Origin: Thermoplasmata archaeon
Lineage (GTDB): Archaea; Thermoplasmatota; Thermoplasmata; Halarchaeoplasmatales; Halarchaeoplasmataceae
Direction: 5' to 3'
DNA: 64,000 nt
NCBI GenBank assembly: GCA_003552585.1
Contig: PUNK01000015.1
Location: forward strand, 12,513 to 76,512
Position 1 is the stretch's first letter, and every line of letters begins with the position of its first letter. Below are positions 5,023 through 60,350 of the stretch, piece after piece. The position numbers and the translations under genes were made by a program. Below the pieces are notes generated by a model. The model saw nothing but the letters and a program-made list of their open reading frames with translations, did not search any database and had not been told where the DNA came from.

Positions 5023-6795
5023 ATGAAATATACCATTGTACTCAATGATTCGTTAATGGCAGAAAATGAAAAAATAAAATGGCCATTGATAAATTCTATA
5101 AAGGGCATGATATTTCAAGCAGTAGAATTCTTTGAAAAGAAGAAATTCACCCCTTTAACAGCTTTTATCTTTTTAGTTATCTTAGGCATAATAAGATCGG
5201 TGACCGAATCTATATGGTTTGAATACCGTGTTTTTTCCTTGTATCTCATAGTTCAGCACACCGCTTTTAATTTTCCAGTATTAGTGATGGGGGTTCTTAT
5301 TTTATCAATAGCTAGTAAAACCTCTCTAATCAAAGTTTACAACGCGGTCCTTCTAGGCTTCGTGTTGGTCATAATGCCGCCTTTTATGGATTATTTTGTT
5401 TTAGGGCAGTACGGTGCTGAGTACAGTCATCTATATGCATATTACGCTGCTGAATTTTCTTTCATCGATAAAATTCCGGGTATAAATCCCATAATTATGC
5501 TTACCTCAGAAGAGATCAGTGCAGGTCTTAGGAGGATGGTTCTATCTATAATGACATTCAGTGCTTTTTACATCGCAATTAAGATTGAAATATGGGACTT
5601 GTTCACTTCCACCTCTAAAAAGATTTGGCATAAAATTCTGAAAAAATTTTCTGCTCTCTATTTTGGGGTGTTTGGGATTTGGTTGGTAGTTTGGTTCATA
5701 AGCAACATCGTTCCTTCTGTTATAAGTATGGAAGAAAAAGGAATAGTAGTTATGGATTATTTTGTATTTAGGCCTTATAGCAAATATTATGTTTTTATGC
5801 TGGAGCATGGATATACGGAAACAGAAGTATTTTCAGAGGAAGGATTTAACATGGCTTACAGCCTTTTATTACAACAGCGTTCTTTGTTCGTCACAATGTT
5901 TTTCTTTTTACTCACAATAACAATGATCCTATTATCCCTTTATATTTTACATAGGACTTTTTTGAAAAAAACACTAGCATCTTTAAAAGTACCATTACTT
6001 ATTTCTACCACTTTTTCTGCACTGCTAGGCTCTTCTGTAATTCATCTGATTGATCCCGATTTTAGCCAAGGATTAGCTCTAGATCCATCCTATGTGCTTC
6101 ATTTTCCATACATTTTTTACATCGCTATCATGGGATTTTTCTTGGGCTGTTTTGGTTCTTACATCATTCAATTCAAAAACGAAGAACGTATAATTTCTAA
6201 ATATAAGGCCAAACAAATGGCCATCATTTCTCTATTAGGGGGAGGTTCCTTCGCATTCCTAATGGGACCTTTTAGAGCACTACCTATTTTTTTAATTTGT
6301 GCTGGCTTGATCTATCTTGCTTTTAAAGATGGTGAATACATTTTTAACTTTGGAAGATCAGCTCTATTTTCTTTAGCTTGTATGTTGTCTTTCTTTATTG
6401 GTGTTAATACTCCAGATGTCTGGAGACTTACTGTAATTGACCATGGTAGTGTAGGTACACTTACTCTAGCTAGAAATCCTCAATTAACCGGAGAGATTCT
6501 TGGTCTAGCATTGGTCATTTTCACAGTTGTATTTTTGATAACGTACCTACCGACCCTACTTGAAAAGTTGAACATGTCTCACGAATTCCCTGTTTCTTTG
6601 GTATTTCTTCCTATCTTTTTCATACCCCTCTTATTTTATTGGACTCTTGGGTTACTCACAGTAATCGGCTCGTTGGGGGTAATAACTTCAATTCTTTACA
6701 ATAAAGAACTTCATCTCTTTCCCCTGAGCACATTGATGATAGGGATGAGTTACTTGATTCTAGAGTTGTACGGTCTAGCCCCCTCAATTTTATAA
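5023..6795 (+). CDS. Polytopic integral membrane protein of unknown function (more than 12 predicted TM segments)
   Basis: 590 aa, almost entirely hydrophobic helices. No recognisable catalytic motif. Confidence 0.45.
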   Translation: MKYTIVLNDSLMAENEKIKWPLINSIKGMIFQAVEFFEKKKFTPLTAFIFLVILGIIRSVTESIWFEYRVFSLYLIVQHTAFNFPVLVMGVLILSIASKTSLIKVYNAVLLGFVLVIMPPFMDYFVLGQYGAEYSHLYAYYAAEFSFIDKIPGINPIIMLTSEEISAGLRRMVLSIMTFSAFYIAIKIEIWDLFTSTSKKIWHKILKKFSALYFGVFGIWLVVWFISNIVPSVISMEEKGIVVMDYFVFRPYSKYYVFMLEHGYTETEVFSEEGFNMAYSLLLQQRSLFVTMFFFLLTITMILLSLYILHRTFLKKTLASLKVPLLISTTFSALLGSSVIHLIDPDFSQGLALDPSYVLHFPYIFYIAIMGFFLGCFGSYIIQFKNEERIISKYKAKQMAIISLLGGGSFAFLMGPFRALPIFLICAGLIYLAFKDGEYIFNFGRSALFSLACMLSFFIGVNTPDVWRLTVIDHGSVGTLTLARNPQLTGEILGLALVIFTVVFLITYLPTLLEKLNMSHEFPVSLVFLPIFFIPLLFYWTLGLLTVIGSLGVITSILYNKELHLFPLSTLMIGMSYLILELYGLAPSIL

Positions 6796-11483: not shown

Positions 11484-12524
11484 TCATCCTAGTTTGACAT
11501 CTACGACAACATGAAATACGTGAGGTGCATAGGATTTGATCTTTCGAACATCGATTACCTCAAAATCGGTAATTATATTCTCAGTAAGCTCTCTATCGAT
11601 TTGTGTATGGAACTCCCTATCTAAAACAATGGTGTGATAATGAATGAGCCCTTCATCTCCGATTAGTTTTAAAGCTTTTGGTAAAAATCTCCACGTGTCA
11701 TGTAGATATCCCATGACCACTCTATCCGCTATACCACATTTGTGAAAATCTCTGTTATCACCATTCCAAGGTTCCACTATATCCATAACATCGTTTAATA
11801 TTGTATTCTCTTTCAGATATCTATAAGCTGTATCATTTATCTCAAGCGAGTAGATCTTTTCAGGTTGAGAATGGACGGCCATAGGTAGGGAAAAATAACC
11901 AATACCTGCGAACATATCTACGATGGTCTCCCCTTTTTCAGGAACTTTGGCTATCCTAACTCGTTCATCTATGTTACCACTTGAAAACATCAAACAAGAG
12001 ACATCCAATTTGTATTTGACGCCGTTCTCTATATGAACTGTTTCCGTAGATCCTCCATAAATCACCCTTACTTCAGGTTCGCGACAGACTCCTTTAATAG
12101 GACCCTGATCAAGGACCGTTTTCACACCCAACACATCTGAATACGCTTTCCCTATTTTCTTTTCATGTTCTTTTAAACTGTTTGGCAATTTAAGCAATAA
12201 TACATCTCCAATTTTCTCCCACCTTCGTGGAACTTTTTCAGTTGGTATACCTTTCTTTCTAAGTATTTTAACTACATTTTCAAAGGGAGTAAGTTGCTCA
12301 TTCCTCTCAGGAAGTTCTTCCCGCCCTATCCCTCCTTCTTTAACTGGTATCAATAGATAGCCTTCTTTTTCAAGAGGGATGCGGTCGGAGTCTAAATTTC
12401 CTTCTTTTTTCAATTCTCTCATCACAATCTCCCCTTTCTCTTTCGGTACCTTTAAGACATGTCCCCTTTTCATATAATAACACAAACTCACTTTATCACA
12501 TAAATATTTTATACCTTCGAACAA
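11484..12524 (-). CDS. tRNA (guanine37-N1)-methyltransferase of the Trm5/Taw2 family
   Basis: Class I SAM methyltransferase core IVDMFAGIGYFSLPMA, with the N-terminal Trm5-type domain. A paralog lies at 31149-32129. Confidence 0.68.
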   Translation of the reverse strand: MFEGIKYLCDKVSLCYYMKRGHVLKVPKEKGEIVMRELKKEGNLDSDRIPLEKEGYLLIPVKEGGIGREELPERNEQLTPFENVVKILRKKGIPTEKVPRRWEKIGDVLLLKLPNSLKEHEKKIGKAYSDVLGVKTVLDQGPIKGVCREPEVRVIYGGSTETVHIENGVKYKLDVSCLMFSSGNIDERVRIAKVPEKGETIVDMFAGIGYFSLPMAVHSQPEKIYSLEINDTAYRYLKENTILNDVMDIVEPWNGDNRDFHKCGIADRVVMGYLHDTWRFLPKALKLIGDEGLIHYHTIVLDREFHTQIDRELTENIITDFEVIDVRKIKSYAPHVFHVVVDVKLG

Positions 12525-12536
12525 CTTGGATGAATA

Positions 12537-13319
12537 ATGAAGATAAAAGCATTTGTCCTGGCCTTTCTGGTATTAACACTATCTCTATCTTTAACTAGTG
12601 GACTTGATGAGGTGTCTGATCCGGGCAGGGTTAACAAGCTATTAGGTGATTTCACCACACCCATAATCGAACCGAGTAGTGAGGGAACACTTTCTTTCAA
12701 CTTAACAAATCCATATGAAGAGGATATGGGAAACGTAAGGGTCAGGATAGAAATTTATGCTTTTGCAACTCTAGATGAAGAAAAGGATATAACTTTGGTG
12801 GACAGCCCGCCTACCTTCGCAGCAACTGGTGAAACGTATACAAGTTTTTCACATAACGTACTTGTTCCCAATCAAGCTTACCCTCGAGAACTACGGATTA
12901 ATACCAACAGCAACACTGAAAAAGGTGTTTATTTTCTTCGATTTGAGATGGAATTTGAATACCTGGAAGAATCTTATCTGATGAGATCAAAAGGTCATTT
13001 TAGCGATGAGGATTGGGACTACGCTACCCGTAGGCCTGGTACAAGCGACGAACCCTACTATTCCGGTAGTATAAACATAACATATCTGCAAGCAGATGGC
13101 ATAATACCTGATAGCAGCTTTACAGTTAAAACACCTATACCTCGCTGGCCTCAGTTCCTACTGGGCGGTTTAGCGGCCTTTTTTGGAATCTTTGCTGTAA
13201 TGCTTTATATGCAGGAAGAGTACAATTCATTCCCTTGGCTAGAAAAGACTCTTAACAAATGGTCCGGTAAATTTCAGCAGTTGAGGCGCAGACTTGAGTA
13301 CAGGCTTCGCAAGCGTTGA
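12537..13319 (+). CDS. Secreted protein with C-terminal TM anchor, unknown function
   Basis: Signal peptide MKIKAFVLAFLVLTLSLSL and C-terminal hydrophobic helix FLLGGLAAFFGIFAVMLY. The last 81 nt overlap convergently with the GGR C-terminus. Confidence 0.35.
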   Translation: MKIKAFVLAFLVLTLSLSLTSGLDEVSDPGRVNKLLGDFTTPIIEPSSEGTLSFNLTNPYEEDMGNVRVRIEIYAFATLDEEKDITLVDSPPTFAATGETYTSFSHNVLVPNQAYPRELRINTNSNTEKGVYFLRFEMEFEYLEESYLMRSKGHFSDEDWDYATRRPGTSDEPYYSGSINITYLQADGIIPDSSFTVKTPIPRWPQFLLGGLAAFFGIFAVMLYMQEEYNSFPWLEKTLNKWSGKFQQLRRRLEYRLRKR

Positions 13320-14408
13320 AGGGTAATCGATGTCTCCTTGATCTTCGATGACCTTTTTTACCTTCTCTTTTTTCAAAATCATGAATAGATCATCTAATTG
13401 TTCGTCACTCAAATTTCTGAAGATGTTGCTAATCCACAACCCTTTGGATATCTCTGGTCCTATTTCCTCCTGCCATGCTTCGTGATATCCTTTCAAAACT
13501 TCTTTACGATTATTTTCCATTTCCAGTGCCTTTAATGCTGTACTAGCACAGTGCTTGGCTGATATCAAGCCTGTGTACAGCCCTCCTCCTGAAAGAGGCT
13601 TGACTTGGCAGGCTGCATCACCAACCAGCATTAATCCCTCATCGATGGATCGATTTACCCTTCCCAGGGGAATCATCCCGGCGAATATTGAAATAACTTT
13701 ACGTTCCCATCCTTTCTTTTTAAGAAACTGAACAAGATAATCCATGGCATTGCCATTTCTAGATGCAAGGCCAACTATTGTTCCAGAATGATGTGGTACT
13801 TCCCATCCAAAAAACCCAGGAGCTATATTTTTCCCTAAATGTATATGGATGCCGTCTGGTTCTTTACCTATCAGTGTTTGGATACCAACAAGGCACTCAC
13901 GGGGGCCAGGTATCTTTGCATTCCTTCTAATAACTGAACCAGCACCGTCTGCAGCTATCAAAAGATCGCATTTTAAAATCTTCCTTTTGCCTTCCTCTTT
14001 ATAATAAACAATTCTTTGTCTTCCATCCCATGAAGAGCCTTGGACACTGCAGCCTAAATTTACCTCCGCTCCTTTCTCGATGGCTTATTGAGCCATTTCC
14101 CTATCAAATTTTTTTCTGTCAATGATCGCGGCCCTAACCTCTCCAGCATCCAAAAAAAGTGGTTCACCAGTGGGAGGATGAATTCTTGCGCTTTTTGCAA
14201 GAGATATTACACTGTCTGTCCTCGTAATATCTATAACCCTCGGACTAACAAGGCCAGCACAGTGCATTGGCTGACCTATTGCACTATGCTCCTCGAGGAC
14301 TAGGGTTTGATACCCTTTTTCAGCGACATCGGCTGCTACGCTCATCCCAATTGGTCCGCCTCCAACGACTATCACATTGTACAATTTATCGGCTTTTGAA
14401 AGTTGCAC
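13239..14408 (-). pseudogene. Geranylgeranyl reductase (digeranylgeranylglycerophospholipid reductase family) interrupted by an in-frame TAA at 14085-14087
   Basis: The upstream ORF (14085-14408) has the FAD-binding N-terminus YNVIVVGGGPIGMSVAADVAEKG. The downstream ORF (13239-13961) begins IAADGAGSVIRR and carries the GGR C-terminal motifs. The 123-nt gap is in the same frame and translates AIEKGAEVNLGCSVQGSSWDGRQ..., aligning with ...LAEKAVEAGAE... of known GGRs. Confidence 0.7.
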
Positions 14409-31148: not shown

Positions 31149-32129
31149 ATGCTCTGCGTTAAAGTTCCTAAAAGTGAAGGAGAAAAGGTTAGACTAAAAC
31201 TTTTGCACCATTCTTTACTTTCCCTAAATTATAAAATCGAGTCTGAAGGAGATACACTTTTCATCCCAGTTACACGTGACCCAGGAAATCTAATAAAATA
31301 CCCCCTTGTCCAGCGAGAAGTTGAAGAACTTAAAACTGATACACTACCCGAAGAGTTAGAGAAATTGATCCCATCCAGCTATGATATAGTCGGAGATATA
31401 GCTTTAGTAAAAGTACCCGACCAGTGGGCATCTTGCAAAGAAGACCTGGGGAAGGCCATACTTATGCGCCACAAAAATGTGAATACAGTTCTGGAGGATA
31501 CAGGAGTACATGGGGAGTTTAGAATTAGGGAGGTTAAGTACATGGCAGGCGAAAGAAAAACTAGTACGGTGCATCGAGAGTATGGAATCGAGATTGAGGT
31601 GGATCTTGGTGAGGTCTACTTTTCACCACGATTAGCGACAGAAAGGTGGACTGTTACCCAGAAGGTGAAAACAGGAGAAAAAGTTATGGATATGTTTTCA
31701 GGTGTTGGGCCATATACTCTTCTTATTGCCAAAAATAAAAAAATCGATATCATCCATGCAGTGGATATCAACCCAAAGGCAGTAGAATTTTTAAAAAGGA
31801 ACGTTCAGAGGAATGGTGTGGAGGCTTTAGTAAAAATTTGGCAAGGGGATTCTCGAAAAATTTGTGAGAAGGTGAAAGTAGACAGGGTTATAATGAATCT
31901 GCCTCATTCTGCAAAAGACTTTTTAAATCACGCCTTTAAAGTATTAAATAAAAAGGGGGCTATACACTATTACGAGATTCTTTCTCCTGACGACATATCG
32001 AAGAGAGAAAAACAGTTAATTGAAGATATTAAGAAAAAGGGACGCAATGCCCGTATTGTAGAGAAAAGAGAGGTTCGAACCTATTCTGCTGAAGAAGTGC
32101 AAATCGCTTTTGATATAATTATCGAGTGA
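31149..32129 (+). CDS. Second Trm5/Taw2-family tRNA methyltransferase (paralog of 11484-12524)
   Basis: VMDMFSGVGPYTLLIAKN..AVDINPKAVEFLKRNVQRNGV is the same SAM-MTase core as the other copy. Confidence 0.68.
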   Translation: MLCVKVPKSEGEKVRLKLLHHSLLSLNYKIESEGDTLFIPVTRDPGNLIKYPLVQREVEELKTDTLPEELEKLIPSSYDIVGDIALVKVPDQWASCKEDLGKAILMRHKNVNTVLEDTGVHGEFRIREVKYMAGERKTSTVHREYGIEIEVDLGEVYFSPRLATERWTVTQKVKTGEKVMDMFSGVGPYTLLIAKNKKIDIIHAVDINPKAVEFLKRNVQRNGVEALVKIWQGDSRKICEKVKVDRVIMNLPHSAKDFLNHAFKVLNKKGAIHYYEILSPDDISKREKQLIEDIKKKGRNARIVEKREVRTYSAEEVQIAFDIIIE

Positions 32130-38812: not shown

Positions 38813-39721
38813 ATGAAAGAATATGATATTATCGTTATCGGAGGAGGGCCAGCGGGATTATCTGCTGCGATTTATACCTCTAGAGCTGGCTTCTCTACAC
38901 TTATACTTGATGAAAGGGATAAGCTCCTAGAAAAGGTTAAGCATATCGAAAATTACTTTGGTTTTCCAGAGGGTATATCTGGTGCTGAACTGTTGGAGAG
39001 GGGCAAAAGACAGGCTGAGAGATTTGGTACGATTGTGAGTTATGAAAGAGCTCTTCTCGTAAAAATTTCAGAAGAAGATTACAAGATCGATACAGCTGAA
39101 GAAGAGTATCGTACAAAAGGACTTGTCATATCACCAGGTATACAACATCAAAAGCCTATGGTTGAAGGTATCGAAGAGTTTGAAGGAAAAGGAGTCAGCT
39201 ATTGTGTGACCTGTGATGCTCCCTTGTTCAGAGGGATGAAGGTCGGTCTGATAGGTTCTCAGGACCTAGTTATAAAAGAAGCTATTGAATTATATGAGTT
39301 TACAAAAGACATAATAATCTTTACCGATGGGCGTGACTTGGATGCATCACAGATACTAATAGAAAAGCTACAAGAACATAAAATAACGGTAAACAAAGAA
39401 AATATAGTAAAAGTTGTCGGAGGAAAGGAGTTAGAGGGATTAGAACTAGAATCAGGTGTTGAAAGGCTTGATGGTGTAATGGTGGCCGAAGGCACAAGCG
39501 GCTCGCTTGACTTTGCTCGAAGCTTAGGTATACCCGTAGAAGACGATGTATTAAAGGTCGATGAAAAACAATTTACAGGGTTGCCTAGAGTTTATGCTGC
39601 AGGAGACTGTACCGGAGGAGCAAGACAAATCAGTGCTGCTGTTGGCGAAGGAGCAAAGGCGGCTCTAGGATTGATCGAGGAGCTCAGAGGAGATGAATAT
39701 AAAGATTGGAAACATAGCTGA
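38813..39721 (+). CDS. trxB: Thioredoxin-disulfide reductase
   Basis: YDIIVIGGGPAGLSAAIY (FAD), redox-active CVTCD, NADPH-binding GLIGSQDL..., AAGDCTGG. Confidence 0.8.
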   Translation: MKEYDIIVIGGGPAGLSAAIYTSRAGFSTLILDERDKLLEKVKHIENYFGFPEGISGAELLERGKRQAERFGTIVSYERALLVKISEEDYKIDTAEEEYRTKGLVISPGIQHQKPMVEGIEEFEGKGVSYCVTCDAPLFRGMKVGLIGSQDLVIKEAIELYEFTKDIIIFTDGRDLDASQILIEKLQEHKITVNKENIVKVVGGKELEGLELESGVERLDGVMVAEGTSGSLDFARSLGIPVEDDVLKVDEKQFTGLPRVYAAGDCTGGARQISAAVGEGAKAALGLIEELRGDEYKDWKHS

Positions 39722-42774: not shown

Positions 42775-43821
42775 ATGTTCTGTGTGGAATGTGGTAAAGA
42801 ACCTGAAGAATTGTATAACGGATTATGCGACGAATGCTTTTTAGAGGAGATCGATGCTGATATCCCAGATAAGCTAGAGGTTGAAATATGTGCTTCCTGC
42901 GGATCTGTGAAAGAAGGACAACGTTGGATTGAAAATCCAGATCTGTATTCAATAATGCTGGAAAGGATCGATGACTCTATAAAAACTGATCAGAAAATAG
43001 ATAGCTACTCGTTCAGTACTGAATTTATAGAGCAGGACCTCAATAACATTCAAGCAGATATAGACATTGAACTGGTAACTCAAGGCTTAAAAAAAACTGT
43101 CAACAAGTCAACCGTGATTAGATTGAAAAAAGGGCAGTGTCAAACTTGTAGCAGGATACACGGCAATTATTACGAGGCAATAATTCAGATCAGACCTACT
43201 AAAGATAAAATGACTGAGGAACAGAAAGAGATAGTCAGGAAAAAGGTTGAAAAGGAGGTATCTGTTAAAAGAGGAGATGAAAGAAACATATTTGTAACGG
43301 CCCATGAAGAACGTCATGGCGGATTAGATTTTTTCATGAGCGACAACGGGGGGAGTAAAAAATTATCTAAGAACATTGCCCAAAGATTTGGAGGACACAT
43401 TACCATCTCAAGTAAATTGGCGGGGAGGAAAGATGGAAGAGATATATACAAGATGACCTATTCTGTAAGATTACCCCCCTATGAAAAAGGAGATTTTGTT
43501 CTTTTTGATGACATTATCTACCAGGTGAAGGAGATCGGTACTAGCAGCGGAAACATAGTTTTAATTGAATTAAGAACAGGTAAAAAAAATGTTATAGATA
43601 AAAGGGATTCTTATTCGCTCGAAGTGATTGGAGGGAGTGAATTGGTAAAAGAGTCTGTAATTGTTTCAGAGACTGAAAAGGAAATAAAGATACTAGATCC
43701 TGATGACTATCAAACAAAAACCCTATTGAAACCTGAAGGATATCGATCTACAGGGGATAATGTTCTAGTTCTAAAATATGATGATAGAATATTGATACTT
43801 CCTGAAAAAGAGTTAGACTGA
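42775..43821 (+). CDS. NMD3-family ribosomal export/maturation factor homolog
   Basis: N-terminal double zinc binding CVECG..CDEC..CASCG, then OB-like domains. 348 aa. Confidence 0.65.
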   Translation: MFCVECGKEPEELYNGLCDECFLEEIDADIPDKLEVEICASCGSVKEGQRWIENPDLYSIMLERIDDSIKTDQKIDSYSFSTEFIEQDLNNIQADIDIELVTQGLKKTVNKSTVIRLKKGQCQTCSRIHGNYYEAIIQIRPTKDKMTEEQKEIVRKKVEKEVSVKRGDERNIFVTAHEERHGGLDFFMSDNGGSKKLSKNIAQRFGGHITISSKLAGRKDGRDIYKMTYSVRLPPYEKGDFVLFDDIIYQVKEIGTSSGNIVLIELRTGKKNVIDKRDSYSLEVIGGSELVKESVIVSETEKEIKILDPDDYQTKTLLKPEGYRSTGDNVLVLKYDDRILILPEKELD

Positions 43822-45392: not shown

Positions 45393-46628
45393 TTATGTCC
45401 CTTCCTCCCATCCAGTTAGATAATCCCTTTGTTCTTTTGTTAATTCATCGATTATTATCCCTCTAGTCTCGAGCTCTAGCCTTGCTACTCTTTCATCCAG
45501 TTTTCTAGGTATATTATGAACACCTGGTTCAAGTTCTTTGTTCTTCATTATATACTCCGCTGCTAGCATTTGTAGGGCAAAGCTCATATCCATTATTTCT
45601 GCTGGATGTCCCTGCCCTATAGCAAGATTAACCAGCCTTCCATCAGCTAAAAGATATATCTTTCGTCCGTCATTCATCTTGTACTCTTTTACATCTTCCC
45701 GAACAATTCTGCTGGAAACGGATAAGTTTTCTAACACTGTTTTAGAGATCTCATTATCAAAATGTCCAGAGTTAGCCAAAATACAGCCATCTTTAGCAAC
45801 AGATAACTACTCTTCATCAACAACTGATTTACAGCCAGTAGCAGTCACAACAAAGTCAGCTTTTTTAATTCCCTCATGCATGGGCAAAACCTCAAAACCA
45901 TCCATATTAGCCTCCACTGCTTTTATTGGGTCAACTTCGGATATCATGACATTTGCTCCCATCCCTTTAGCTCTCATAGCGATACCTCTTCCACACCACC
46001 CATAACCTCCAACTAGGAAATTTTTCCCACTAACCTGTAGATTTGTTGCAGTCAACAGACCATCTATGGTGGACTGGCCTGTACCGTATCGGTTATCAAA
46101 AAGATGTTTCATGTAAGCGTCATTAACAGACATAACTGGAAATTCTAATTTCCCTTCAGATTCCATTGCCCTGAGACGGACGATTCCAGTCGTTGTTTCT
46201 TCAGCGCCTCCTTTTATGTTATCGAGTAGATCTCTCCTCGTAGTATGAACTAAAGATATGAGATCACCCCCATCATCTATGATAACGTCAGGATCCTGAT
46301 CGAGTATAAGATTTAGATTTTTGTAATATTCCTCTTCTGACTCTCCTCTCTTTGCATAAACATCGAGACCATATTCCTCTCTAAGTGCTTTTGCCACGGA
46401 ATCATCTGTAGATAAAGGATTGCAACTTGCCATTTTTACAGTAGCACCTGCTTCTCTAAGAGATAACCCTAAAATCCCTGTTTTTGCTTCAACATGAAGA
46501 GCCATGGATATTTTTACACCATCAAGATGTCCTGCTTTCTTCACGGATTCTCTAACCCTCTTTAGAACTTTCATGTGGTCTTTAGCCCATTTCAATCTTT
46601 TCACACCTTTTTCTACATCTCTTTCCAT
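45393..46628 (-). pseudogene. ahcY: S-adenosyl-L-homocysteine hydrolase interrupted by an in-frame TAG at 45807-45809
   Basis: The upstream ORF has the AhcY N-terminal and NAD domains (..NFLVGGYGWCGRGIAMRAKGMGANVMISEVDP..TATGCKSVVDEE). The stop is followed 27 nt later, in the same frame, by [20 protein letters not shown], which is the conserved AhcY continuation (..MKDGAILANAGHFD.EI). Confidence 0.75.
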
Positions 46629-48943: not shown

Positions 48944-50521
48944 TTATCGGATAGGAACAAGTGATATCCAAGGACTGCCCTTCTCTTCGTCGGTTACGAT
49001 AGCATACAATCCTGTTTTTGGTTTTATTCCATAAATACAGGGAGTTTTGCCGATGGATGTGACCACAAAATAGGTGTCCGCCATGTTTTTTATTTCTGGT
49101 TTTAGCTGAAGACCATGTTTTATGATACCTATTCCTAGATTTTTTGATATCTTTGTATTGGCCACCGCTTCAAGGAGGTCTTTGATGGCCATCTCATCTC
49201 CCATCAAATACTCCAAAGTGTCGAAGCCAGTGTAATCGATCATAGGGGTTTTTCCGCCATCAGTAATCTCGTTGATCTGCTGATTGTAAATCTTTCCAAC
49301 TTGGTCTCTTTTTTTGCCCCCTAATGCCATCATATAAGGATTCTCAGTGCTTGAGGAGAAATAATCTACTATCCTAAACCTGCTGTCAAATACGTCCTCA
49401 GATATGAAACGTGTGAGATCCTCCCTCAAATTATCTGGATGAGTTCCACCGGAAAGTACACCGAGAATCCCTCTATTTTGAGTCAGGAAATTAAGGAAAA
49501 TTGGTCTCAAAACGGAGAAGTATTCTTCAGTACTAACATCTTCCATAATTTCAAAAACGTTGTAGCTGCCTTTTTCAAATCCTCCTTCGAGTAACTCATC
49601 TAAGTCAGTAGTACCAGTGCTGTATTTGTGTTCCTTGTCATTGATCGGTTTCCACTCCTTATGCTCTTCAACACTAACTCTATAAGGTTCGAAACACGTA
49701 AACCTGCCCCCGTAAAGGGTCATAAGATAAGTAGGCTGTTTGATACCAATACCTCTTAATTTCTTCAACTGTATTTGTCTGACGTCTCTGTTTTCGATCT
49801 GAAACCTTTCAAGTTTTATGACACCATCGACCAGATATTCAAGAGCTCTAGCATCTTCTTTCTCTAAAACCAATAGAAGATTAGTTCCTGAATTCTCGAC
49901 TAGGTCCTTCTGAAGAGTCATTATAAAAGTTTCCGCATCAAGACCATATTTATGAGTTAATCCTTCAACACTGTCGATAACTAACATCGTCCTTTCAGGA
50001 AGAATTTTATCAATACGATCATAGATCCGTTCAAGTCCCGGAATCTTTTTATCTAGTCCTTTAAGCATCGTTCTGTTCACTTCTGTAGGCATCTCATCCG
50101 TCTCAATAGTCCCAAGGAACTGTTTTGCAGATTCGATCTTCTTCTTTTCAGATTCGGGTAATTCTTCCTCCTCTTCCTCGATGTCTCTATATAATGTTTC
50201 TAGAAAGACTTTGCTCGAATCAACAATTCTGTTTTTCATCTCTTTTTCTTCTAGCCAGGGAAATTGTTGGTAAAGACTGTGGTCTGAAACCCTTGTAGAT
50301 AAATAAAAGCTACGATCAGGATCGCCGACCTCCTCTATAAGTTGAAGTGAAAGTGTGGTTTTACCTGTCCCAGCAGTACCTTTAACCATAAGAGAGGAGC
50401 CGCCTTTTTTCCCGATAAAATTGATGACCTCTTTAGGGATGGCTATATCGTGTTTACTTTTGCTATCTCGAACTACATCCATCTTTTTATTTTTTATTGG
50501 CTCAGATTCCATTTTCTCCAC
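48944..50521 (-). CDS. Double-domain KaiC-like (RecA-superfamily) ATPase
   Basis: N-domain Walker A MVKGTAGTGKTTLSLQ. A second KaiC-like domain has a degenerate P-loop. 525 aa. Confidence 0.68.
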   Translation of the reverse strand: MEKMESEPIKNKKMDVVRDSKSKHDIAIPKEVINFIGKKGGSSLMVKGTAGTGKTTLSLQLIEEVGDPDRSFYLSTRVSDHSLYQQFPWLEEKEMKNRIVDSSKVFLETLYRDIEEEEEELPESEKKKIESAKQFLGTIETDEMPTEVNRTMLKGLDKKIPGLERIYDRIDKILPERTMLVIDSVEGLTHKYGLDAETFIMTLQKDLVENSGTNLLLVLEKEDARALEYLVDGVIKLERFQIENRDVRQIQLKKLRGIGIKQPTYLMTLYGGRFTCFEPYRVSVEEHKEWKPINDKEHKYSTGTTDLDELLEGGFEKGSYNVFEIMEDVSTEEYFSVLRPIFLNFLTQNRGILGVLSGGTHPDNLREDLTRFISEDVFDSRFRIVDYFSSSTENPYMMALGGKKRDQVGKIYNQQINEITDGGKTPMIDYTGFDTLEYLMGDEMAIKDLLEAVANTKISKNLGIGIIKHGLQLKPEIKNMADTYFVVTSIGKTPCIYGIKPKTGLYAIVTDEEKGSPWISLVPIR

Positions 50522-50526
50522 CTACT

Positions 50527-50952
50527 CTATCTTTTGAATTCCTTTGATTCTTCAATGCTCATTGCAATTTTTGATAAATCTTTCATGAGCTTATTTTTTT
50601 CAGATGTTTCGCCTAACAATGAAAGAACTGCATTCTTTCCAACACCTTTGATTAACAATATATCTTCATCCGAAGATACCTCTACTATTTGGGGCTCGCT
50701 TTTATCAAAACTCGCAAATATAACGTCAGAAGCACCCAATATAGTTGCGGATAGTGCACTAAAACTCTCGTTTTTTTCCTGCTTTTCCATTTTTGTAGCT
50801 AGTGGAATGCCATTCTTCGAAGCAAGTACTAAGGCTTCCATATAATCATGGAAATTCTCTTCAAATATTGACTCGACCTCTGTTTTTATAGTGATAGTTC
50901 CACGCTCCTGTGGTTTGTAAGAATTCTTAATAAGGGTAGATGATGTTAACAT
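50527..50952 (-). CDS. Roadblock/LC7 (MglB-like) domain protein
   Basis: 141 aa, LC7-like alpha/beta pattern (ALVLASKNGIPLA...ILLIKGVGKNAVLSL). Confidence 0.45.
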   Translation of the reverse strand: MLTSSTLIKNSYKPQERGTITIKTEVESIFEENFHDYMEALVLASKNGIPLATKMEKQEKNESFSALSATILGASDVIFASFDKSEPQIVEVSSDEDILLIKGVGKNAVLSLLGETSEKNKLMKDLSKIAMSIEESKEFKR

Positions 50953-50973
50953 ATTTAAGTTTTGACCGAGTTT

Positions 50974-51198
50974 TCACATGAAATCAAATAGATGAAAATC
51001 CCTCCGACCCTGCATTTTCTTCTTCATCTCTGACACCAAAGAACGATAATAAGACAGATAGTTTCTTACGTTCTCCAATTCATTTAATAGCCTTTTTTCT
51101 TCCTCATTTAGTTCATCGATCTCTGATTGTATTTCCTTCAGCCTATTACGACTTTCCCTCAATTGATCCTTTATTCCCTTCAGGGTTCTTTCATCCAT
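50974..51198 (-). CDS. Small coiled-coil protein
   Basis: Heptad-rich sequence, 74 aa. Confidence 0.3.
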   Translation of the reverse strand: MDERTLKGIKDQLRESRNRLKEIQSEIDELNEEEKRLLNELENVRNYLSYYRSLVSEMKKKMQGRRDFHLFDFM

Positions 51199-51203
51199 GA
51201 ACT

Positions 51204-51440
51204 TTACCTCACACTATCCCCCATTCTTTCGATCGAAGATGTGAAATCCCTTTCATCCTTTGTCAGAGTCATCAAGGTTTCCTCTAGGGACGTTATTTCA
51301 TCTTTTAGATTTTTGACCTTTTTTTTAAGTTCATGTTTTTCTTTTCGAATTGATTCGATACGACGTAGAAGTTCGAGTTCTCTCTCCTCCCATCTTCTTT
51401 TTTCCTCGATCGCCATGAGCGTTTTATCACTCGAAGACAT
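51204..51440 (-). CDS. Small coiled-coil protein. It is 5 nt upstream of the previous one in a different frame, so it could be the frameshifted N-terminal half of one gene.
   Basis: Heptad-rich sequence, 78 aa. Confidence 0.3.
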   Translation of the reverse strand: MSSSDKTLMAIEEKRRWEERELELLRRIESIRKEKHELKKKVKNLKDEITSLEETLMTLTKDERDFTSSIERMGDSVR

Positions 51441-57777: not shown

Positions 57778-58476
57778 ATGATAACTATCCTAGGTGTTGG
57801 ACATGTATTCGATATACATGAAAAACTCCGTCATGAGATACTTAACAGAAGACCAAAAGCTGTAGCAGTAGAGCTTGATAGAGCAAGATATGAAGCTCTA
57901 AAATCAGGAGATAAAAGTGGTGAGGCACCGATCCTTTATCGAGTGATGTCATTGATACAAGAGAAAATAGCAGATGAATATGGGGTTGATCCAGGAAGTG
58001 AAATGCTTGTCGCTATCTCTGCTGCAAATGAAATCGGTGCGACAATAGCATTAATAGATTTACCTGCGCAGGTCGTATTTAAAAAAATGATGAGTTCGAT
58101 GTCTTTAAAAGAAAAGCTTTATTTGATGGCCGGGATGATTGGAGGGATGTTCGCATCCAAAGACACTATAGACAGGGAGATGGAGAGGTACGAAAAAAAC
58201 GAAGATACTTACATGGCCATTGTGGAAAAACAAATGCCCACTGTCACACGAGTACTTTTAGACGAAAGAAATGAGCATATGGCCAAAGAACTGGTAAAAC
58301 TAGAAGAACAGTTTCAAAACGTCTTGGCAGTAGTTGGAGACGGGCACATCAAAGGATTGGCCGATGAATTAGAAAATAGAGACGTTGAGATACTGAGACT
58401 TAAAGATATGAAAAGGAAAGAAGAACATTCCGAAATCAGTTTCTCTTATTCTTATAAGTATGATGAAGTTCAATAG
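57778..58476 (+). CDS. TraB-family protein (soluble domain)
   Basis: ITILGVGHVFDIHEKLRHEILNRRPKAVAVELDRARYEAL matches the TraB/GumN N-terminal consensus. Confidence 0.6.
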   Translation: MITILGVGHVFDIHEKLRHEILNRRPKAVAVELDRARYEALKSGDKSGEAPILYRVMSLIQEKIADEYGVDPGSEMLVAISAANEIGATIALIDLPAQVVFKKMMSSMSLKEKLYLMAGMIGGMFASKDTIDREMERYEKNEDTYMAIVEKQMPTVTRVLLDERNEHMAKELVKLEEQFQNVLAVVGDGHIKGLADELENRDVEILRLKDMKRKEEHSEISFSYSYKYDEVQ

Positions 58477-59414
58477 ATTTTCTTTTTGAAGTCATTTTCA
58501 TAATATTCTCTGTAAACTTCGTATTCCTTTTTCTTTCCTTTGTCGGGAGTGAGTACTATTCCAAACCAGACCGAGCCCACCATTGCTTCACCAACAACTA
58601 TTACCGATGTGATATACTCTGCAATACCCCATCCTGGTTCGATACTGCGAATATGTTCTATGTCAGCTATACAAAGCTCACAAAAATCAGTAGGAGGAGG
58701 TGCAGTAAATTCTCCTTCCTTTATTTGGACCGAAGCAGCCATCACACAAGGACCAGCAGATTCGTCACAATGATGAGGATAAGATTCGTCTTCATGAGCA
58801 CTTTCATACCCTATTCCAACCAGAGATATAAGATGACCAAACTCGTGGACCAGTACTGCGGATTCAACATCTTCGTAATCTAAATCTTGGCTACGTTGAG
58901 CTGCATTTTCGATGGTTGCCCTAAACATGACCACATAATGATTACCAAAGGTCAAACCCAATACGTTAGGTTCCTCCTCCCATTCCCCATCCAAGTAAAA
59001 AACGTTCATGACCATTGTATTGTCATCTCTCATGTATGTAGTATATTCATCAACAATAGAATAGATATCTTCTCTCGTGTAACTTCCCCTTTCCGAGTAA
59101 CCTCCACCCCAAATGTCTATTTCATCACTCATTACCTCCCTGATTTCCCTCTTTTCAGAGTAAGTTTCTATCCTCTCAACAAGTGTACTTCGTGCACTAT
59201 ATGAAGGTTGATAACCAACAACGTAATTATATTCTATTAGTAATTCTGAATATCTATCATCGTCGAGATACATCTGGGCATACTCGTAAGAAGTGTAAAG
59301 GTTCGCCTGATCCCTTAGGAAAACAGGTAGATGTGCTGCTGTTATCACGATAGATAATACGGTTATTATCACCACAATACTAGCTAGTATACGATTTCTT
59401 TTCATTTTTCTCAT
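58470..59414 (-). CDS. Membrane-anchored zinc metalloprotease (HEFGH, archaemetzincin-like)
   Basis: N-terminal TM anchor. AVLVHEFGHLISLVG plus downstream His/Cys cluster HHCDESAGPCVM. Confidence 0.5.
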   Translation of the reverse strand: MRKMKRNRILASIVVIITVLSIVITAAHLPVFLRDQANLYTSYEYAQMYLDDDRYSELLIEYNYVVGYQPSYSARSTLVERIETYSEKREIREVMSDEIDIWGGGYSERGSYTREDIYSIVDEYTTYMRDDNTMVMNVFYLDGEWEEEPNVLGLTFGNHYVVMFRATIENAAQRSQDLDYEDVESAVLVHEFGHLISLVGIGYESAHEDESYPHHCDESAGPCVMAASVQIKEGEFTAPPPTDFCELCIADIEHIRSIEPGWGIAEYITSVIVVGEAMVGSVWFGIVLTPDKGKKKEYEVYREYYENDFKKKIY

Positions 59415-59423
59415 CTTTATAAT

Positions 59424-60350
59424 TCAATCTGTAACCTCAGCACGTTTTATATCCTCATAGACTGTAGATGCTGCCTCTGCACCCTGACCTGCAGCAGTTA
59501 TAGCCTGTTTAAGAGTTGAATCGATAACATCGCCTGCAGCATAGATACCGGGAACGTTTGTTCTTCTTTCCCTATCTGTTTGGATATATCCTCCATCTGT
59601 GGTCGAAACTCCTAAATTTTTTGCAATTCTTGAGTTTGGTGTCGAACCGATCTCTATGAAAAGTCCATCGAGAGGCAGTAATTCTTCTTTACCATCATTG
59701 TACCGAATTTTTACTTTTTCAAGTTTTTTATCGCCTAGGAGTTCTATGACTTCGGATTCAAATATTGATTTGATATTTTTCTGTGTCTGAATTTCCTTAA
59801 CACGTATAGGTTCAGGTCTGAAAAATTCATCCTTCCTATATATTATGTATACATTCTCTGCATGGTCGGACAGTAGTAAGCTAGATGCTAAAGCAGCATC
59901 ACCGCCTCCAACAACACCGACTTGTTTTTCATTAAAAAATGCAGCATCGCAGGTTGCACAATAGCTCACACCTCTTCCAAGAAATTTTTTTTCCCTTTCC
60001 AGTCCTAATTTCCTCCTTTCCGTTCCAGTGGCAAAGATCACCTTTTTCGTTGAGTAATTACTCCGAGACGTGGTCACCTTGAACTCTAGATCCGTTCCAG
60101 TAACGGATTCGACTCGCCCTACATTTACAGGAACATCAAGTGATTTCACATGTTCCTCCATCTTTTCCATGAGTTTCATTCCGTTAACATGTTGATAAGA
60201 TGGAAAATTGCATACCTCATAAGCCTCGGAAAGCATTCCGCCCGGCATCTCACCTATGACCATAACATCTAAATTGTATCTCGCAGCATAAATCGCCGCT
60301 GTGTATCCTGCAGGACCCGTGCCTATTACTATCAGATCAAAATGTTCCAT
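59424..60350 (-). CDS. Thioredoxin reductase-like flavoprotein (second paralog)
   Basis: FDLIVIGTGPAGYTAAIYAAR, CATCD, GGGDAALASS, AAGDV. Confidence 0.72.
   Translation of the reverse strand: MEHFDLIVIGTGPAGYTAAIYAARYNLDVMVIGEMPGGMLSEAYEVCNFPSYQHVNGMKLMEKMEEHVKSLDVPVNVGRVESVTGTDLEFKVTTSRSNYSTKKVIFATGTERRKLGLEREKKFLGRGVSYCATCDAAFFNEKQVGVVGGGDAALASSLLLSDHAENVYIIYRKDEFFRPEPIRVKEIQTQKNIKSIFESEVIELLGDKKLEKVKIRYNDGKEELLPLDGLFIEIGSTPNSRIAKNLGVSTTDGGYIQTDRERRTNVPGIYAAGDVIDSTLKQAITAAGQGAEAASTVYEDIKRAEVTD

Follow-up and report, generated by a model that had tools for sequence, protein, structure and literature searches.

An in-frame TAA in a geranylgeranyl-reductase-family gene of a Thermoplasmata contig is best explained as an error in the deposited consensus

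A gene of the geranylgeranyl-reductase (GGR) family on a deposited Thermoplasmata contig is interrupted by an in-frame TAA, which raises the question of whether the stop belongs to the organism or to the sequence record. We analyzed the locus within a window of 64 kb, meaning the whole stretch of DNA under study. Minus-strand translation and the ORF coordinates agreed with the original prediction that both halves of the gene lie in one frame and are split only by the TAA. The locus consists of the following elements:

13239-14408, minus strand: GGR-family gene of 389 codons with a GTG start; one internal stop only in its translation; matches to Pfam FAD_binding_3, DAO, and GGR_cat and to TIGR02032
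14085-14087, minus strand: in-frame TAA at codon 108; AAA (Lys108) in the Logan assembly, the differing base being 14087 (plus strand, A in the window and T in Logan)
13962-14084, minus strand: 41 sense codons from the stop to the TTG at 13961, the earliest possible restart; they encode a conserved stretch of the FAD-binding domain, AIEKGAEV...LLIAADG
14088-14408 (14085-14408 with the stop), minus strand: N-terminal GGR fragment (107 aa); contains Cys50, which is conserved, and two motifs, GxGxxG (FAD binding) and RxxFD
13239-13961, minus strand: C-terminal GGR ORF of 240 aa in the ORF listing, with its earliest start at the TTG at 13961

Around the stop, the translation of 13239-14408 reads ...RKKFDREMAQ-stop-AIEKGAEVNLG.... 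The 107-aa and 240-aa ORFs share one frame, and the gap between them is made up of the TAA and the 41 sense codons. After the halves were joined, X replacing the stop codon, the protein matched Pfam FAD_binding_3 across the stop (residues 11-167) and also gave DAO, Lycopene_cycl, and weak GGR_cat matches. The alignment and this crossing match bore out the earlier statement that the codons after the stop encode conserved GGR sequence. The window protein kept every residue that was invariant among 28 aligned sequences, with no frameshift in the alignment, and no second lesion was found in the gene in either the translation or the 28-sequence alignment. At its 3' end, the gene overlaps a convergent gene on the plus strand (12537-13319) tail to tail by 81 bp (13239-13319). 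This neighbor encodes a 260-aa protein with an N-terminal signal-like segment, a C-terminal hydrophobic segment, and no Pfam match; both the neighbor and the tail-to-tail overlap were seen again in five of five soda-lake relatives.

The intact version of the GGR-family protein (P0121, from the Logan assembly) scored 188.7 bits with the family model TIGR02032 (GG-red-SF), above its cut-off of 158.8, over residues 10-289 and model positions 1-295 of 297. It did not reach the equivalogs for DGGGPL reductase (NF041160, 106.6 versus 780 bits; NF041080, 78.8 versus 580 bits; NF041385, 62.2 versus 700 bits), and its Pfam GGR_cat match of 22.8 bits lay below the cut-off of 27. The VVGGGPIG motif was present, and C50, R98, F101, D102, G263, D264, P271, and G274-G276 were invariant in the 28 sequences, including the window protein. 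The best solved relative was the digeranylgeranylglycerophospholipid reductase of Thermoplasma acidophilum (3OZ2; E = 3.9e-27, residues 9-349). Both proteins have an N-terminal GxGxxG FAD fold, a conserved Cys, RxxFD, and LVGDAA...P..GGG, whereas the GYIWVFP segment of 3OZ2 is FFGWEVP in the window protein, a form conserved within its clade. Because the match to 3OZ2 is distant, the scores fall far below the NCBIfam equivalog cut-offs, and this segment is changed, any assignment of its substrate would be tentative. As a prediction from profiles and motifs, the designation of the protein as a geranylgeranyl-reductase-family flavoenzyme is justified. The earlier label of "geranylgeranyl reductase (archaeal lipid saturation enzyme)" was right as to the family, but its lipid-saturation part went beyond the data, given the equivalog scores; we infer that the protein may have such a role. 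No second GGR paralogue was found within the window, where the one similarity, at the Rossmann level only, was to a thioredoxin-reductase-like gene at 38813-39721.

A second gene of the window, ahcY, is also interrupted:

45393-46628, minus strand: adenosylhomocysteinase-family gene (ahcY) of 411 codons; in-frame TAG at 45807-45809, which is GAG (Glu274) in Logan

Its translation around the stop reads ...VVDEE-stop-LSVAKDG.... AhcY passed the NCBIfam equivalogs TIGR00936 (586.6 versus 497.6 bits) and NF004005 (618.6 versus 275 bits), and no second lesion was found in the gene. The original prediction had described ahcY as carrying the same defect within 32 kb; an in-frame stop with a sense codon in Logan was indeed present, but the codon is TAG, not TAA. 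The best solved match of AhcY was the archaeal S-inosyl-L-homocysteine hydrolase 7r3a (E = 4e-147), and the ahcY product may therefore act on S-inosylhomocysteine instead of SAH.

We compared the window with an independent assembly from Logan of the public run SRR490150. Three overlapping stretches of Logan sequence, with contig SRR490150_6684 (81,852 bp) as the comparison contig, covered 45,024 window bases (3239-24408 and 32775-56628). The window may represent a sample other than SRR490150. The fragments of GGR (107 and 240 aa) and AhcY (273 and 128 aa) had exact matches only on one NCBI contig of 94,587 bp, and their 90% identity clusters contained one further member each, both from Logan SRR490150_6684. 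The 389-aa GGR-family protein of Logan, P0121, was identical to the read-through translation of the window with Lys at the stop, and the 411-aa AhcY of Logan, P0124, matched the ahcY read-through translation exactly once Glu was put in for the stop. A base-call error from AAA to TAA had been among the explanations offered originally, and AAA (Lys108) in an intact 389-aa protein is what Logan contains. A sense codon at the stop position had been named as the observation that would expose an assembly error, and the independent assembly, standing in place of a read pile-up, essentially supplies it.

Over the 45,024 bases, the window and Logan differed by six single-base mismatches and no indels (99.987% identity). 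The window-private bases, all given on the plus strand, are as follows:

6678: G in the window, T in Logan; GGG versus GGT, synonymous, in gene 5107-6795; context GGG[T>G]
14087: A in the window, T in Logan; TAA stop versus AAA Lys108 in the GGR-family gene
43352: G in the window, T in Logan; GGG Gly193 versus GTG Val in the NMD3 gene (42775-43821, plus strand); context GGGG[T>G]
45809: A in the window, C in Logan; TAG stop versus GAG Glu274 in AhcY
51070: G in the window, T in Logan; K43 to N in the window, in a 74-aa minus-strand ORF
51410: T in the window, C in Logan; V11 to I in the window, in a 78-aa minus-strand ORF

Both stops were thus absent from Logan. We also considered whether the private bases were ambiguity codes resolved alphabetically. 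Only five of the six fit this pattern, and gene calling on the NCBI record had encountered true stop codons; lacking support, the idea was rejected.

The six differences comprised one synonymous, three missense, and two nonsense changes. Random substitution in the affected genes would be expected to yield 21.8% synonymous, 73.3% missense, and 4.8% nonsense changes. Set beside this expectation, the spectrum looks unselected, unlike polymorphism under purifying selection. A real minor allele was also considered. Under this reading, some members of the soda-lake Thermoplasmata lineage would carry a TAA in the GGR-family gene as well as a TAG in ahcY, and the depositor's assembler would have taken this haplotype, whereas the majority sequence went into the Logan and JGI assemblies. 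With 99.987% identity between them, the two assemblies could be alternative paths through a single population graph, and the nonsense changes (two of six) exceeded the chance expectation (P = 0.03), an excess not foreseen by a model of purely random error. Between near-identical strains, however, synonymous changes normally dominate the variation, and here they made up only one in six. It is also implausible that, under selection, a lineage different at only six bases in 45 kb should have lost two conserved genes of the housekeeping type that lie within 32 kb.

Agreement with a third assembly could be examined at one of the six sites. The JGI contig SL_5KL_010_SEDDRAFT_10011490 (3,358 bp) was identical to Logan and differed from the window at 43352 only. 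This was the only difference covered by three assemblies, and the window base stood alone there, which again speaks against a minor allele. In 21 homologues of NMD3, Val predominated in the column of Gly193 and Gly did not occur. The JGI contig, which belongs to sample 3300000477, stops 157 bp before the ahcY stop. A search of the JGI metagenomes with an exact 43-mer carrying N at the variable base gave no match over 14087, where the number of independent assemblies is one (Logan).

Two of the six private bases (6678 and 43352) showed the motif and direction GGT>GGG, the strongest among Illumina systematic base-call errors (Meacham et al. 2011, PMC3295828). This fit to a known instrument-error motif likewise counts against a minor allele. 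The differences resemble Illumina and MAG consensus errors (PMC3295828) in being isolated substitutions without indels, in including two of six with GGT>GGG, and in being absent from independent assemblies. They depart from that error type in that both stop-creating substitutions lack the GGT motif, being T>A in TTTTT (14087) and C>A in CTCCTC (45809) on the plus strand. Taking both sides together, we regard a minor-allele nonsense polymorphism as unlikely, and even in that case the main population would have an intact GGR-family gene. A bolder form of this idea, that the TAA and the TAG are linked alleles of a real haloalkaliphilic Thermoplasmata sub-lineage that either lacks both enzymes or reads through the stops, appears quite improbable on these sequence comparisons. 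If it were true, an isoprenoid reductase and SAH recycling would both be seen here in the course of a natural knockout.

We further examined homologues and orthologous loci at the position of the stop. In 27 homologues, this column was mostly Lys and otherwise Arg, Glu, or Ser. The nearest relatives among GTDB species genomes and JGI metagenomes were 57-60% identical over the full length; these collections contained no close sister genome and no sister genome with the same GGR lesion. Gene order was as in the window, as far as the contigs reach, in Thermoplasmata MAGs from soda lakes (B1Sed10_107R1, CSSed10_214, and HAP27) and in JGI contigs. The common order of TatD, TBP, GGR, the 260-aa secreted protein, Trm5, a membrane protein, radical SAM, and HTH in the window and five relatives indicates that these GGR genes are orthologues. 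All five syntenic orthologues were uninterrupted, with AAG (three) or AGA (two) where the window has TAA; the comparison of orthologous loci suggested in the original prediction thus gave intact genes throughout. The relatives originate from sediments of hypersaline soda lakes in the Kulunda Steppe, and in the study behind their MAGs, uncultured Thermoplasmata related to group KTK 4A were abundant (PMC6146748). The name of the JGI contig (SL_5KL_010_SED) hints that the present population, too, may stem from such a sample.

The remainder of the window was scanned in six frames for cases in which a single stop divides two long ORFs of the same frame. The scan returned 20 pairs, and none of these looked like a split gene beyond GGR and ahcY in the 64-kb window. 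Several pairs were neighboring genes that were separate in the Logan gene calls and usually belonged to different Pfam families:

10521: membrane protein and radical SAM, neighboring genes, not split
18072: 158-aa ORF and DUF447, neighboring genes, not split
55111: DUF373 and MptE-like, neighboring genes, not split

In the pair at 59424, the upstream ORF was a complete thioredoxin-reductase-like protein covering Pfam Pyr_redox_2 positions 1-291 of 291, and the remaining pairs were antisense to longer ORFs. Ten further genes outside the regions compared with Logan had ordinary domain matches and no sign of truncation or splitting. Interrupted genes therefore numbered two of about 65 in the window, with one base affected in each.

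Several other features of the window were recorded:

11484-12524, minus strand: Trm5/TYW2-family tRNA methyltransferase with Trm5_N, TYW2_N_2, and MTase domains
31149-32129, plus strand: paralogue of the preceding gene, within 20 kb, with the same three domains
38813-39721, plus strand: thioredoxin-reductase-like Pyr_redox_2 gene
59424-60350, minus strand: second thioredoxin-reductase-like Pyr_redox_2 gene, ending in TGA and followed by a same-frame 314-aa ORF (58470-59414) without a Pfam match
48944-50521, minus strand: GvpD/KaiC-like P-loop ATPase with Pfam ATPase, GvpD_P-loop, and GvpD_bR2 matches

The GvpD/KaiC-like ATPase adjoins three small ORFs (about 50527-51440) without family matches, and no other gas-vesicle genes were seen near it.

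Recent fixed pseudogenization of the GGR-family gene and ahcY in the sequenced strain would account for the fact that the stops stand in the deposited sequence and that gene callers split both genes. Decay of this kind, or a recent nonsense mutation, was one of the original proposals. It did not survive the comparison: neither gene showed a further frameshift, a further stop, or loss of an invariant residue, both were intact in the essentially identical Logan genome, the five syntenic GGR orthologues were all intact, and no other broken gene was found in 64 kb. A lesion that is not reproduced in the independent assembly and has no second lesion beside it does not mark the GGR-family gene as a pseudogene, and we consider fixed pseudogenization very unlikely.

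Stop-codon read-through had also been proposed, by which TAA and TAG would be decoded as sense and full-length proteins made. Both stops are in frame, at residue-tolerant positions, and followed by conserved coding sequence, which fits programmed recoding. Against this, the 45 called genes end in TGA (23), TAA (16), and TAG (6), and the TAA at 6793-6795 ends gene 5023-6795, as the original prediction had noted in calling TAA a normal terminator. With all three codons serving as normal terminators, recoding is without support. The window contained no tRNA gene, suppressor or other. The predicted folding of the 98 nt from the GGR stop was not more stable than that of shuffled sequences (z = -0.5), and Rfam gave only a chance-level sR14 match (E = 0.73). 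Over the 64 kb examined, TAA and TAG thus behaved as ordinary terminators, only two genes were affected, and neither a tRNA gene nor a structure was found that would indicate reassignment or read-through. The near-identical Logan assembly has sense codons at both positions. We therefore dropped the proposal, and regard read-through as extremely unlikely.

The conservation at the GGR stop position, the otherwise intact gene, the unselected spectrum, the agreement of the JGI contig, and the Illumina motif together favor the Logan version of the sequence. The TAA in the GGR-family gene is very probably a sequencing or assembly error in the consensus of the deposited contig, not biology. By this account, a single-base substitution from AAA to TAA (plus strand T to A at 14087) would be private to the deposited metagenome-assembled contig, and the stop would most likely have entered when the consensus was built. 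The population genotype would then be an ordinary, intact 389-aa GGR-family flavoenzyme with Lys108. We infer error, as opposed to a rare real allele, as the cause. The ahcY stop is probably a second assembly-private substitution of the same kind, and it and the four other single-base differences probably have the same origin.

The GGR stop is best explained as no biological feature and as nothing new; the comparisons gave no evidence of a new genetic code, read-through, or loss of isoprenoid saturation in the lineage. In its compared part, the deposited contig carries about one private substitution per 7.5 kb, and single-base "defects" elsewhere in the genome should therefore be distrusted until they are checked against reads. 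In a metabolic reconstruction based on this MAG, the GGR-family reductase and adenosylhomocysteinase would be mistaken for enzymes that the organism lacks in intact form.
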